Made by a program: the position numbers and the translations under genes. A stretch of DNA of 64,000 nucleotides. Origin: an uncultured Gemmatimonadota bacterium (lineage in GTDB: Bacteria; Gemmatimonadota; Gemmatimonadetes; Palauibacterales; Palauibacteraceae). Below, piece by piece: positions 13,541 to 17,014 of the stretch. The stretch lies in contig CAZVIY010000007.1 of assembly GCA_964627425.1 (NCBI GenBank), positions 63,510 to 127,509 on the forward strand, written 5' to 3'. A model generated the notes under the pieces. It saw nothing but the letters and a program-made list of their open reading frames with translations. It did no database searches and was not told the origin of the DNA. The stretch's first letter is position 1. Each line of letters starts with the position of its first letter.

Positions 13541-16500
13541 ATGGCGGAACTGAGCGACGACCGGAAGAAGGCCCTCAACGTCGCCATGAAGCAGATCGAG
13601 CGGCAGCACGGGAAGGGCGCCATCATGCGCCTGGGCAACGAGGGCGCCCGGGTGAAGGCCGAGGCCATCCCCACCGGCGCCATCAACCTGGACCAGGCCA
13701 CCGGCATCGGCGGCGTGCCCCGGGGGCGCATCACCGAGATCTACGGCCCCGAGGCGTCGGGGAAGACCACCCTCACCCTCCACGTCATCGCCAACGCCCA
13801 GAAGCAGGGTGGGGTGGCGGCCTTCATCGACGCCGAGCACGCGCTGGACGTGCAGTACGCCGAGAAGCTGGGCGTGGACACCGAGAACCTGCTGGTCTCC
13901 CAGCCCGACACCGGCGAGCAGGCCCTGGAGATCGCCGAGGTGCTGGTGCGCTCCGGCGCCCTGGACGTGGTGGTGGTGGACTCGGTGGCCGCCCTGGTGC
14001 CCCGGGCCGAGATCGAGGGCGAGATGGGCGACTCCCACGTGGGGCTCCAGGCCCGGCTCATGTCCCAGGCCATGCGGAAGCTCACCGGCGCCATCGGCCG
14101 CTCCGACACGGCCCTGGTCTTCACCAACCAGATCCGCGAGAAGATCGGGGTGATGTTCGGCTGCTTCCAGTACAACACCCGGGTCACGCTGGCCGACGGC
14201 AGCAGCGAGAAGATCGGCAAGATCGTGAACCAGGAGATGGACGTGGAGGTCCTCTCCTACGACCCGGAGTCGGGAAAGATCGAGCCCCGGAAGGTCGTGA
14301 ACTGGTACGACAACGGGACGGCCGAGCGATTCCTGCAGTTCGAGGTGGAGGGCGGCCCCTCCGGCCGTCGGAAGTTCGCGGCCACGCCGAACCACACGGT
14401 GTTTACCCCCGACGGCCCCCGCCCGGCCGGCGAGCTCGGGGAGGGCGATCGGGTGCTCACGATGGTCGAGGACTACGCGCTCACTGCCGACCAGGAGCAG
14501 GTGATCCTCGGCGGCGCGCTGGGCGACGGATCACTCCGGAAGGCCGGGACTCACACGGCCCACATGCGGGTTGGACACGGAGCGCAACAGTCGGAGTACG
14601 TCGACTGGAAACGGTGGATGCTCGAGCCGTTCTCGTCGTCTCTCCGGTCCATGGGCAATGGCGAGGGGTTCAGAACGAAGTCCATGCCCGTCCTCGAAGA
14701 GCTTCGTGGAGAGCTCTACAAGGAGAAGGGTCAGCGTACGGTGAGCTCGTCGGTCCTGGAGCAGATCGACGCCCGGGGTCTCGCGGTCTGGTATGCTGAC
14801 GACGGTTCTTTCGCTGGCTCCTACGACAGGTGGGGCAAGGGCAAAGCCGTGATCTACAACTCCTCTCTCGACGAGGAATCGAGGGAGCGAGTGGGCGCCT
14901 ACTTCGAGCGGATCGGTGTGGGTCGACCGCGCGACGACGGCCGGGGCTTCTGGTTCAACTCGGAACAGACAGAGCGATTCCACGCGATGATCGCTCAGTA
15001 CCTGCATCCCTCGATGGTGCACAAGCTCCATCCCGAGCAGCGGGACCAGTTCAACTGGGAGCCGGACTTGAGCGATGCCCACCTCAATGGCGATCGCCTC
15101 GATCACCGCCGCCATCTTCGAGCCGTGCCCGCCACCATCGTCCGGTGCTACGAGAAGCCGAAGACCCGCTCCATGCGACGCTTCGACCTGGAGGTGGAGG
15201 GGAACCACACCTACATGGTCGACGGCGTGGTCGTGCACAACTCCCCGGAGACCACCTCGGGCGGGCGGGCGCTGAAGTTCTACGCCTCCCTCCGGCTGGA
15301 CATCCGCCGCGTGGCCTCCATCAAGGAGGGGAACGAGCAGGTGGGGAACCGCACCCGGGTGAAGGTGGTGAAGAACAAGTGCCTCGCCGCCGGGACCAGG
15401 GTGTTCGATCCCTCCACCGGCGAGACCCATACCATCGAGGAGATGGTGGAGGAGGGGAAAGGCGTGACCGTCGTGGCTGCGGGAGACGACGGACGTCTCG
15501 AGAGACGACACGTCCTCCAGCGCTTCGACCAGGGCGAGGCCGAGGTCATCGGCCTGCGGCTCCAGGACGGGACGGAGCTCCGGGTGACGCCCGATCACGA
15601 GGTCCTCACCGACGACGGCTGGCGAGAGGCGGGCGAGCTCTCGGAAGGGGACCGGCTGGCCCGACCGCGCAGAGCCGGGAGCTTCGGTGACGAGGAACCG
15701 TTCAGCGCCGACGAGGGTCGGCTCCTGGGCTATCTCGTGGGCGACGGCTACGTGGGCGGGAAGACACCCGTCACCTTCGTGAACGCCGACGAGGAGCTCC
15801 GGGACGACGTCACCGAGATCGTGGCGGGGATGGGCTGCGACACCGACCTCCGCGGCCACGGCTACGACCTCGCCATCTCCCACCGGCCCGGCGAGAAAAA
15901 CGAAGTCCTGGAGCTGTGTCGCCGGACCGGGATCTACGGATGCCTGGCATGGGAGAAGAAGCTCCCGGCCGAGCTCTTTTCGCCGCGGATCTCCGAGGAG
16001 GTCCTCGGGAACGTCCTCATGGGCCTCTGGGAGTCGGACGGATACGTCTCCCGGGAGCAGACGGGCGGCCTGCGCCTCGGTTTCACCACGACCTCCGAGC
16101 AGCTCGCCCACCAGCTCCACTGGCTCCTGCTCCGGTGGGGCATCGGGAGCTCCGTCCGGGCCTACGATCCCACCCAGCAGCGGCCGAGCCTCATCGACGG
16201 GCGCCGGATCGAGGCCCGGCGACCCTGCTACGACGTCCGGATCTCGGGGATCGAGAACGTCCAGGCGTTCGCCGAATCCGTACCGACGTGGGGGCCGAAG
16301 GGGAGAGTCCTGGAGGAGCATCTCGACGATCCGGAGCTCGCGAAGCATCGGGGCTCGCAGCGGGTCTACCTCCGGGCCGACCAGGGCGAACCGATCGTGG
16401 AGTGGCTCCGGGACCACGACGTGAGTCCCACCATGGCCTCGAGCCTGTCAGGCTGGGACGGGAATCCCTCCGGCGGGCTCCGGCAGGTGATCGGGCCGAG

Positions 16501-17014
16501 CCGGCCTCGCCGCGACCGGGTGGAGGCGCTGGCCACTTCGCTGGACAGCGAGTTCCTGACCGAGCAGACGGCGGAGGACCTCTGGTACGACCGGATCGTG
16601 GAGGTTCTCCCGGCCCGGACGGAACGGGTCTACGATATCCACGTGGCGGCGGATCACACGCTGGTGGCCGACGACGTGGTGGTGTCGAACTGCGCCTCCC
16701 CATTCAAACAGGCAGAATTCGACATCATGTACGACGAGGGCATCAGCCGGGAGGGCCTCCTCATCGACCTGGGCGAGGAGCACGAGGTCATCGCCCGGGC
16801 CGGCGCCTGGTACTCCTACGGCGAGGACGACGACGTCAAGCTGGGCCAGGGCAAGGAGAACGCCCGCCAGTTCCTCAAGGAGAACCCCGACCTCCGCGAC
16901 GAGATCGAGGAGAAGGTGAAGCGGGAGATGGGTCTCCTGGACGACGGCGACGAGCCCGGGGCGGAGGCCGCCGGCGAAGAGGCCGATGGGGAGTCCGCGG
17001 ACGGCGAGGAGTAA
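13541..17014 (+). CDS. recA: Recombinase RecA precursor containing two in-frame inteins (extein about 360 aa)
   Basis: Canonical RecA exteins: N-extein ...[12 protein letters not shown]...[12 protein letters not shown] (207 aa); middle extein [46 protein letters not shown]; C-extein [28 protein letters not shown]...[24 protein letters not shown]. They are interrupted by two Cys...Asn-bounded insertions carrying LAGLIDADG motifs. Confidence 0.95.
14162..15241 (+). mobile_element. Intein 1 in RecA (360 aa) with LAGLIDADG homing endonuclease domain, inserted between GVMFG and SPETT
   Basis: It starts [13 protein letters not shown], has block [18 protein letters not shown] motifs [10 protein letters not shown] and WYADDGSF, and ends [15 protein letters not shown] followed by Ser+1. 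The frame continuity was checked by coordinate arithmetic. Confidence 0.85.
15380..16690 (+). mobile_element. Intein 2 in RecA (437 aa) with LAGLIDADG homing endonuclease domain, inserted between VKVVKNK and [10 protein letters not shown] (the site used by the M. tuberculosis RecA intein)
   Basis: It starts [22 protein letters not shown] (compare the M. tuberculosis RecA intein CLAEGTRIFDPVTG...), has block [18 protein letters not shown] motifs [11 protein letters not shown] and [11 protein letters not shown], and ends [12 protein letters not shown] followed by Cys+1. Confidence 0.85.

Follow-up and report, generated by a model that had tools for sequence, protein, structure and literature searches.

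The window analysed here, a 64-kb stretch of DNA, carries on its forward strand, to which all coordinates below refer, a recA open reading frame (ORF) of 1157 aa. This ORF occupies positions 13541-17014, starts with ATG and ends with a stop codon at 17012-17014; the ORF list shows neither a frameshift nor an internal stop in it. At 72% GC an open frame is in itself weak evidence, chance antisense ORFs of more than 600 aa being present. Pfam identifies in the product a RecA domain (E 9.6e-125), a RecA_C domain (7.8e-22) and an Intein_splicing domain (5.3e-22), as well as two endonuclease domains, both above the cut-off: LAGLIDADG_2 (2.1e-18) within the first of two insertions, intein 1, and LAGLIDADG_3 (1.1e-16) within the second, intein 2. 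The NCBIfam model NF007072, 'intein-containing recombinase RecA', scores 1077.9 bits against an equivalog cut-off of 1024, and TIGR01443, which describes the C-terminal part of inteins, matches two stretches of the whole ORF.

Taking aa 208-567 and aa 614-1050 out of the precursor leaves a RecA of 360 aa. Its N-extein (13541-14161; RecA aa 1-207, Pfam RecA positions 1-198) ends with GVMFG, the middle extein (15242-15379; 46 aa) runs from SPETT to VKVVKNK, and the C-extein (16691-17011; 107 aa), which starts with CASPF, holds the RecA C-terminal domain (Pfam RecA_C, ORF aa 1072-1130) and the acidic tail, and is colinear with solved RecA structures. The 360-aa extein matches RecA chains in the PDB with E-values of 1e-121 to 1e-151 (about 1e-151 for the mycobacterial structures), scores 503 bits with TIGR02012 (cut-off 325), and aligns with E. 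coli RecA without a gap at either junction. Removal of both insertions is thus predicted to yield a complete and colinear bacterial RecA. An earlier note on this DNA had read the ORF as a 360-aa RecA with two Cys...Asn insertions; its boundaries prove correct to the base, and the frameshift that it named as a possible objection is absent from the recA ORF.

Intein 1 (14162-15241; 360 aa) lies at RecA site b, between GVMFG and SPETT, and runs from CFQYNTRV to DGVVVHN. The key splicing residues are invariant or almost so among 131 homologues: Cys1 is Cys in all of them, and the Thr and His of block B (T75-P-N-H78; 14381-14404) are invariant. Blocks F and G (15179-15241) include D342, H349 and a His-Asn end, and Ser follows at +1. 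The first LAGLIDADG motif (14507-14536) has its aspartate, Asp122, conserved in 128/131 homologues, and is located in the endonuclease domain of the structural model (helix 109-120), just upstream of the stretch best matched by LAGLIDADG_2 (ORF aa 320-456). The second (14783-14812) has two, Asp213 (131/131) and Asp214 (129/131). Analysed alone, intein 1 passes TIGR01445 (53.7 bits, cut-off 24.5) as well as TIGR01443 (23.6 bits, above its cut-off), and its sequence matches the M. tuberculosis RecA intein's splicing domain in the PDB (E 5.9e-13). The AlphaFold model (pLDDT 94.6) lies at an rmsd of 1.1 A from the M. tuberculosis RecA mini-intein; it also resembles full inteins and, with a target TM of 0.68-0.70 for the endonuclease domain, I-SceI.

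The insertion point of intein 1 was attributed in the earlier note to the M. leprae type, and both the junction and the published coordinates agree. The GVMFG/SPETT junction is shared with PI-MleI and is identical in the 131 homologues, including that of Mycobacterium sp. P0095 (intein at 206-573). The M. leprae RecA intein has been published at positions 206-570 (PMC4513877), to which site b of the window corresponds after a two-residue N-terminal offset. PI-MleI (365 aa) and intein 1 also have in common Cys1, the His-Asn end, Ser at +1 and the Pfam endonuclease family LAGLIDADG_2. Nevertheless, when the site-b intein of P0095 stands in for the M. leprae sequence, identity to intein 1 is 54% in the N-terminal splicing lobe, 34% in the endonuclease and 40% in the C-terminal lobe; with H. 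alba P0066 included, the range is 51-54% for the N-terminal lobe and 34% for the endonuclease. A search with intein 1 alone gave an incomplete ranking, limited to proteins no longer than about 625 aa and lacking the closer relatives P0108-P0119; among the matches listed, inteins with 60-67% identity are found in RecA proteins named Verrucomicrobiae, Rokubacteria/Methylomirabilota, Pyrinomonadaceae and Burkholderiales, and a RecA named Chloroflexota reaches about 55%. Judged by identity, the closest relatives of intein 1 reside in RecA proteins of several non-actinobacterial phyla; intein 1, though homologous to the mycobacterial site-b inteins, belongs to a divergent branch.

Intein 2 (15380-16690; 437 aa) occupies RecA site a, between VVKNK and CASPF, and runs from CLAAGTRV to DDVVVSN. 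Cys1 is Cys in 132/132 homologues, and the Thr and His of block B (T70-P-D-H73; 15584-15607) are invariant. Blocks F and G (16628-16690) include D419, H426 and a Ser-Asn end, and Cys follows at +1. The aspartates of the two LAGLIDADG motifs, Asp122 (motif at 15722-15754) and Asp220 (16016-16048, inside the Pfam LAGLIDADG_3 match), are found in 129 and 127 of the 132 homologues, respectively. Alone, intein 2 scores 49.2 bits with TIGR01445 (cut-off 24.5), and TIGR01443 is not listed for it. Intein 2 aligns with NF007072, a model of 790 positions, from 252 to 691 (E 2.4e-158), and 252-691 are also the coordinates published for the M. tuberculosis RecA intein (PMC4513877). The best PDB match is the PI-MtuI mini-intein 2imz (E 2.6e-44, both splicing lobes covered). 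The previous assignment of intein 2 to the M. tuberculosis RecA site is thus well founded. The structural model (pLDDT 94.5) lies within about 1 A rmsd of the M. tuberculosis RecA mini-intein at 57-59% identity; the TliVMA and PI-PfuI inteins give TM values of 0.65-0.68 (TliVMA 0.67), and I-DmoI a target TM of about 0.65.

PI-MtuI (440 aa) and intein 2 share the insertion point VVKNK/C, the LAGLIDADG motifs, Cys1, the block B His, the block F Asp and His, the terminal Asn and Cys at +1. They differ in their hosts, Mycobacterium as against Gemmatimonadota, and in two residues near the C-terminus. The penultimate residue, His439 in PI-MtuI, is Ser436 in intein 2, a Ser-Asn end on which the earlier note was silent. 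A penultimate His, which usually assists Asn cyclisation, is common in inteins but not obligatory, and the Ser variant occurs in 23 of the 132 members of the site-a family, all four Gemmatimonadota site-a inteins included. In block F, intein 2 has His421, a residue unique among its 132 relatives, at a position where 125 have Glu. Because of Ser436 and this unusual His, the C-terminal splicing step of intein 2 may be slow. The nearest relatives of intein 2 are the site-a inteins of Gemmatimonadota/Palauibacterales (69-72% identity), followed by inteins with 58-66% identity in proteins whose exteins are about 70% identical, two of them named Acidimicrobiales.

On sequence grounds, both insertions are assigned to class 1 of the inteins, each with a two-motif LAGLIDADG endonuclease nested in it, as all splicing blocks and all motif aspartates are present. 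The block F Asp and His of both inteins are kept in 130-132 homologues, and block G reads His-Asn followed by Ser in intein 1 and Ser-Asn followed by Cys in intein 2. Both models fit the M. tuberculosis RecA mini-intein with rmsd values of 0.9-1.8 A, consistent with a Hint fold, and match DnaB and DnaE inteins as well; an alpha-beta-beta-alpha-beta-beta-alpha endonuclease fold is predicted in each. Two LAGLIDADG motifs per intein and a probably retained endonuclease scaffold had been proposed before: the motif aspartates and the Pfam domains above cut-off bear out the first proposal, and the similarity of the models to solved endonucleases supports the second. The profile comparison that had been suggested also favours inteins, TIGR01445 being passed by each insertion alone and TIGR01443 by intein 1 alone. 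The absence of blocks A, B, F and G, or of Cys1, the terminal Asn and a Ser or Cys at +1, had been named as fatal to the proposal; all of these elements are present. Searching the 64-kb window with HMMs constructed from the two intein families turned up no additional intein, and phage searches with both inteins returned only distant inteins of other phage genes (24-34% identity), which give no indication of a phage vector.

The host is assigned to Gemmatimonadota by extein identity and by synteny, the gene order aldolase-recA-alaS-SDR being common to the window and to Longimicrobiales genomes. Downstream of recA and outside the inteins lies its partner gene recX (17054-17764), recognized by NCBIfam RecX models (best E 8.7e-27) below their equivalog cut-offs. 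Scans around recA for repeats, promoters and terminators gave chance-level matches only, and a tRNA-Gln (30814-30884) was all that Rfam and tRNA scans detected in the whole window. The GC3 of the inteins is 0.86 and 0.90, as against 0.99 for the N-extein and 1.0 for the middle extein; the C-extein is intermediate (0.94), and the intein values are also below those of most of the window's other genes (0.88-0.98). The lower GC3 of the inteins fits a foreign origin.

Among RecA exteins, those found to be closest have one intein each, located at site b in P0108, P0113, P0114 and P0119 and at site a in P0055, P0084, P0121 and P0122; intein-free RecAs are also among the closest relatives. The genome contig search, which matched through extein peptides, yielded mostly intein-free RecAs and served to place the host and to provide intein-free target sites; candidate targets of the two endonucleases were reconstructed. 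Intein-free Gemmatimonadota alleles have Asn at +1 of site b and Cys, Met or Val at +1 of site a, compared with Ser and Cys in the window, so that the inteins bring their splicing nucleophiles with them.

The two sites had been introduced as mycobacterial, a misleading framing given that the host is assigned to Gemmatimonadota and that, taken domain by domain, intein 1 shares only 34-54% identity with its mycobacterial site-b counterpart. Nor did the view that filling both sites of one gene is uncommon survive comparison: of the 120 protein clusters (90% identity) that match best, 110 have full-length inteins at both a and b, among them one named Mycobacterium sp. (P0095) and one from Haloechinothrix alba (P0066); a third, P-loop intein (a+b+c2) is present in nine clusters. 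The spacer from site b to site a measures 46 aa in all four of the other a+b RecAs checked, and among these best-matching clusters the organism-named a+b proteins are all from Actinomycetota. With more than 100 double-intein recA genes in public data, the recA of the window is a new host example rather than a rarity. In the literature, we found listed neither an a+b RecA nor a Gemmatimonadota RecA intein: a RecA with both sites occupied is absent from the intein catalogue of 2015 (PMC4513877), and the surveys consulted list RecA inteins only from Actinobacteria, Proteobacteria and Cyanobacteria (PMC4760082). The published two-intein case, RecA of Thermobifida fusca, is occupied at b and c2 (PMC4513877); several splicing events are needed there as in the a+b RecA of the window, with the P-loop site in place of site a. 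Another parallel is the DnaB of M. smegmatis, like RecA an essential protein of DNA metabolism, which combines the M. leprae-like DnaBi1 and the M. tuberculosis-like DnaBi2 (PMC6195587, PMC8529194). The host protein is different, and DnaBi1 is a class-3 mini-intein of demonstrated redox and zinc sensitivity, in contrast to the full-length class-1 inteins of the window.

Taken together, these data point, with a probability of roughly 0.88, to a chromosomal recA, belonging to a member of the Gemmatimonadota with high GC content, that was invaded by two independent mobile inteins, each with its Hint domain split by a monomeric double-LAGLIDADG endonuclease; splicing and homing are deduced from the sequence. 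The 1157-aa precursor would be translated as a single chain, from which each intein would excise itself by the class-1 pathway, beginning with an N-S acyl shift at Cys1 and trans-thioesterification onto the nucleophile at +1, which is Ser after intein 1 and Cys after intein 2; the terminal Asn would then cyclise, and a last acyl shift would complete the reaction. Completion of the two splicing events would leave the 360-aa RecA. In E. coli RecA numbering, we take site b to be in the DNA-binding loop L2, and site a to follow the Lys-Asn-Lys that acts on ATP across the subunit interface; on this assumption only the doubly spliced RecA should be active. The free endonucleases would be expected to cut intein-less recA, each at its own site, and so to bring about copying of the inteins. 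With 138 bp between their sites, each element can spread independently of the other, which fits the existence of relatives with one intein, the other or none.

Several alternative explanations have to be considered. An assembler could have joined two strains, one with an intein at b and the other with an intein at a, through the middle extein, in which case no cell would possess both. The RecA of the window is indeed a one-member cluster known from one NCBI contig (138,459 bp), a single metagenome contig, the inteins are separated by a shared segment of no more than 138 bp, and all closest exteins found have a single intein at one site or the other. However, the a+b layout in 110/120 top clusters, including that of Haloechinothrix alba and contigs of 1-3.7 Mb, indicates that the architecture is biologically real, and the spacer is likewise 46 aa long in the four a+b RecAs measured. 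Moreover, the middle extein shows no repeat or composition break at a junction, and the inteins of the window share only 69-76% identity with those of the single-intein relatives known, so that these relatives are not the supposed parent alleles. We therefore regard a chimera as very unlikely. That the insertions are not inteins at all, or that recA is a pseudogene, is next to inconceivable: the weak value of open frames in GC-rich DNA is all that speaks for it, against the presence of every defining intein block, family models above their curated cut-offs, a fold matching solved inteins and an extein that forms a complete, colinear RecA.

Less improbable, though still unlikely in our opinion, is that the inteins splice, as the need for RecA demands, while one or both endonucleases are inactive, leaving fixed remnants rather than mobile elements. 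At the protein identity of about 70% seen with the nearest relatives, synonymous sites would be saturated for dN/dS analysis, and per-domain identity was used instead. In intein 1 the endonuclease domain diverges faster (66-71% identity with its nearest relatives) than the splicing domain (75-90%) and could be decaying. Intein-free and single-intein relatives also coexist, as expected from the homing cycle where endonucleases decay and inteins disappear; in a few homologues a LAGLIDADG Asp is lost, and shortened forms of 376-426 aa occur among the site-a inteins. On the other hand, the LAGLIDADG aspartates of the window inteins are all intact, both endonuclease domains give high-confidence models, and in intein 2 the endonuclease and the splicing domain are equally conserved (59-74%). 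A regulatory role, in which the two inteins act as separate post-translational gates, intein 2 being made slow or dependent on metal, redox state or pH by its penultimate Ser and unique block F His, and active RecA appears only when both are open, seems highly doubtful; if true, such a two-gate RecA would parallel, in Gemmatimonadota, the M. smegmatis DnaB inteins with their differing responses.

The reading we favour, two independently mobile inteins in one recA, adds a Gemmatimonadota host to the biology of RecA inteins. The comparison set, as distinct from the window, shows in addition that a+b and a+b+c2 RecAs are widespread in environmental Actinomycetota and that both intein lineages cross phylum boundaries. 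The practical value is limited, since intein chemistry and architecture are ordinary. Nevertheless, the host's own lineage contains alleles with no intein, with a only, with b only and with both, and the occurrence of all four states makes it a natural system for studying how two elements separated by 138 bp in one gene home independently.

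The recA precursor is encoded by an uninterrupted open reading frame (ORF) of 1157 aa with an ATG start (13541..17014, + strand), open throughout and thus free of the frameshift against which the earlier note had cautioned. The same note had proposed two Cys...Asn inserts in this gene, and cutting the ORF gave the same coordinates: the first insert, intein 1 (14162-15241, + strand; ORF aa 208-567; 360 aa), has the junctions GVMFG/CFQYNTRV and DGVVVHN/SPETT, and the second, intein 2 (15380-16690, + strand; ORF aa 614-1050; 437 aa), has VVKNK/CLAAGTRV and DDVVVSN/CASPF. Removal of both leaves a 360-aa protein that aligns without gaps to E. 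coli RecA over both junctions and matches the sequences of mycobacterial RecA crystal structures at E about 1e-151. Intein family models from Pfam and NCBIfam, suggested as a check, score above their cut-offs. On the whole ORF, the Pfam models RecA (9.6e-125), RecA_C, Intein_splicing, LAGLIDADG_2 (in intein 1) and LAGLIDADG_3 (in intein 2) each exceed the gathering score, and the NCBIfam equivalog NF007072 ('intein-containing recombinase RecA') clears its cut-off of 1024 with 1077.9 bits. The NCBIfam N-terminal splicing model passes on each intein alone, and the C-terminal model passes on intein 1 alone and finds two stretches on the whole ORF. Long ORFs (292-837 aa) also lie antisense to recA and its neighbours (14531-16417, 13517-14395 and 10993-13506, all - strand). 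They are a by-product of the 72 per cent GC content of the window, not genes, and an open frame alone is therefore weak evidence in the window.

In the RecA intein catalogue of Topilina et al. (Table 1; PMC4513877), site a is defined by the M. tuberculosis intein (252-691) and site b by the M. leprae intein (residues 206-570). Intein 2 alone covers profile positions 252-691 of the 790-position NF007072 (E 2.4e-158) and matches, in both splicing lobes, the PI-MtuI mini-intein of the PDB (E 2.6e-44). Intein 1 follows extein residue 207, equivalent to residue 205 of an aligned Mycobacterium sp. RecA that has its own site-b intein at 206-573. Both classical sites are thus filled, as had been read from the sequence: coordinates, profile positions and junctions agree, with 46 residues between the sites. 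By E. coli RecA numbering, we take site b to lie in DNA-binding loop L2 and site a to come after the Lys-Asn-Lys that contacts the ATP of the neighbouring subunit.

Homologous inserts were taken from the database-search proteins and aligned (n=131 for the first site, n=132 for the second). The intein blocks are present in both inserts, and the paired LAGLIDADG motifs claimed for each intein are borne out. The splicing residues of intein 1 are Cys1, T75-x-x-H78 (block B), D342 and H349 (block F), H359-N360 and Ser +1, all of them invariant or nearly so in the 131-insert alignment; those of intein 2 are Cys1, T70-x-x-H73, D419 and H426, N437 and Cys +1. Two deviations, at residues 436 and 421, are confined to intein 2. 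The penultimate residue 436 is Ser, without the usual His (Ser-Asn end, 16685-16690); this is a clade trait and not damage, because 23 of the 132 family members (intein 2 and 22 others), including all four Gemmatimonadota site-a inteins, share it. Block F residue 421 (16640-16642) is His in intein 2 alone in the 132-sequence set, and Glu in 125 of the 132. AlphaFold models built from the alignments are confident (mean pLDDT 94.6 for intein 1 and 94.5 for intein 2). The intein 1 model matches the full-length intein-endonucleases TliVMA, PI-PfuI and PI-SceI, its Hint lobe superposes on the solved M. tuberculosis RecA mini-intein at an rmsd of 1.1 A, and its inserted domain matches I-SceI with a target TM of 0.68-0.70. 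The intein 2 model agrees with TliVMA and PI-PfuI along its entire length (TM 0.65-0.68), and its Hint lobe matches the same mini-intein at 57-59 per cent identity and an rmsd of about 1 A. The readings that the inserts are not inteins, or that the gene is a pseudogene, are contradicted by every test (residues, family models, fold and colinear RecA).

The closest exteins among the matches listed are 86-92 per cent identical over the N-extein (the RecA segment before intein 1) and all come from single-intein proteins. In four of the 90%-identity protein clusters site b alone is filled (P0108, P0113, P0114, P0119), and in four others site a alone (P0055, P0084, P0121, P0122); P0084, P0121 and P0122 are named Gemmatimonadota bacterium or Candidatus Palauibacterales. 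The nearest recA genes in species-representative genomes are intein-free (Longimicrobiales, 77-81 per cent; Gemmatimonadales, 75 per cent). In the window, an SF1-type, IGHMBP2/RecD2-like helicase gene (8730-10748, + strand; below equivalog cut-offs) and a gene resembling GntG-family PLP-dependent threonine aldolases (12124-13251, + strand) lie upstream of recA, which is followed by recX and alaS. Longimicrobiales also show the order aldolase-recA-alaS-SDR, at 56-60 per cent protein identity, and in their loci L002 and L004 the aldolase gene likewise adjoins recA. Closest exteins, nearest recA genes and shared gene order together indicate a Gemmatimonadota host and a housekeeping recA locus. 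In the Longimicrobiales MAG SMAG_U14478, complete copies of recA and alaS occur together on both of two different contigs (L002, L003), a sign that the bin may be strain-mixed, contaminated or carry a duplication.

Among the matches listed, the nearest relatives of both inteins are those of the above single-intein proteins (72-76 per cent for intein 1, 69-72 per cent for intein 2). Beyond these, the two inteins differ in history. The next-closest site-a inteins are 58-66 per cent identical to intein 2, two of their host proteins being named Acidimicrobiales, and actinobacterial site-b inteins are just 41-48 per cent identical to intein 1. Among the matches listed, intein 1 shares 60-67 per cent identity with inteins from RecA proteins named Verrucomicrobiae, Rokubacteria/Methylomirabilota, Pyrinomonadaceae and Burkholderiales, and for one from a RecA named Chloroflexota the figure is about 55 per cent; the ranking of the search with intein 1 only is incomplete, since it lists proteins of at most about 625 aa, many partial, and misses the closer full-length P0108-P0119. 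Searches of phages with both inteins gave no close phage-borne relative. The inteins have a third-position GC of 0.86 and 0.90, against 0.99 in the N-extein, 1.0 in the middle extein, an intermediate 0.94 in the C-extein and 0.88-0.98 in the other genes of the window, which fits a foreign origin. Over the 24 bases preceding each site, the window and intein-free Gemmatimonadota recA loci hardly differ (L002-L007; 21-24/24 identical). The +1 splicing nucleophiles arrived together with the inteins, because these intein-free alleles have Asn at the +1 position of site b and Cys, Met or Val at that of site a, against Ser and Cys in the window. A bacterial intein survey records RecA inteins in Actinobacteria, Cyanobacteria and Proteobacteria only (PMC4760082). 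The recA of an Opitutaceae species representative (L001; Verrucomicrobiota) is interrupted precisely at site b by an insertion about 374 codons long (about 6597-7719), which makes this a further non-actinobacterial host for the site.

The view that filling both sites in one gene is uncommon did not survive the database search. The whole precursor retrieved 6837 relatives, and 110 of the 120 best 90%-identity clusters have full-length inteins at sites a and b; as the query held both inteins, the ranking is biased to double-intein proteins, and these counts mean many, not a share among all RecAs. The named a+b proteins in these clusters are all Actinomycetota (Acidimicrobiales, Streptosporangiaceae, Nocardioidaceae, Haloechinothrix alba and Mycobacterium sp.), and the four a+b RecAs that were measured, of all these clusters, have the same junction motifs and 46-aa spacer as the window. 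Nine clusters (P0016, P0024, P0057, P0063, P0072, P0097, P0104, P0111 and P0120; precursors of 1494-1643 aa) carry, besides b and a, a third intein in the P-loop (GPESSGK/C, site c2); P0057 has 56 members, one named Streptosporangiaceae. The 2015 catalogue contains no a+b RecA, gives two inteins as the maximum per RecA and has Thermobifida fusca (sites b and c2) as the sole two-intein case (PMC4513877). The literature is behind the databases on this point, and the earlier rarity claim mirrors the literature. The protein of the window is a singleton from one assembled contig, and just 138 bp separate its inteins, so that an assembler could have joined two single-intein strain alleles. Such a chimera is very improbable and also unnecessary, the a+b architecture being frequent elsewhere; some of these RecAs are carried on contigs of 1-3.7 Mb.

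For a genuine double-intein recA, we propose that a single precursor containing both inteins would be translated, and that each would splice itself out through the four steps of the class-1 reaction, drawing on its own Cys1, its terminal Asn and the Ser or Cys at +1; RecA would be functional only after both excisions. The freed inteins would be expected to act as homing endonucleases against intein-less recA alleles, and since their recognition regions are 138 bp apart, either element could be gained or lost alone. The range of alleles within this lineage, from none through a or b alone to both, agrees with independent gain and loss. The LAGLIDADG acidic residues are kept (D122 and D213/D214 in intein 1, D122 and D220 in intein 2). 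In intein 2 the endonuclease and splicing domains are equally conserved (59-74 per cent), which suggests that the endonuclease is under constraint; that of intein 1 may be drifting, as it is less conserved (66-71 per cent) than the splicing lobes (75-90 per cent). That one or both inteins have lost their endonuclease activity is rather unlikely, and would leave the double-intein reading unchanged. A Gemmatimonadota host is absent from the two published lists of RecA inteins cited here (PMC4513877, PMC4760082); the element that it carries is itself of an ordinary kind.
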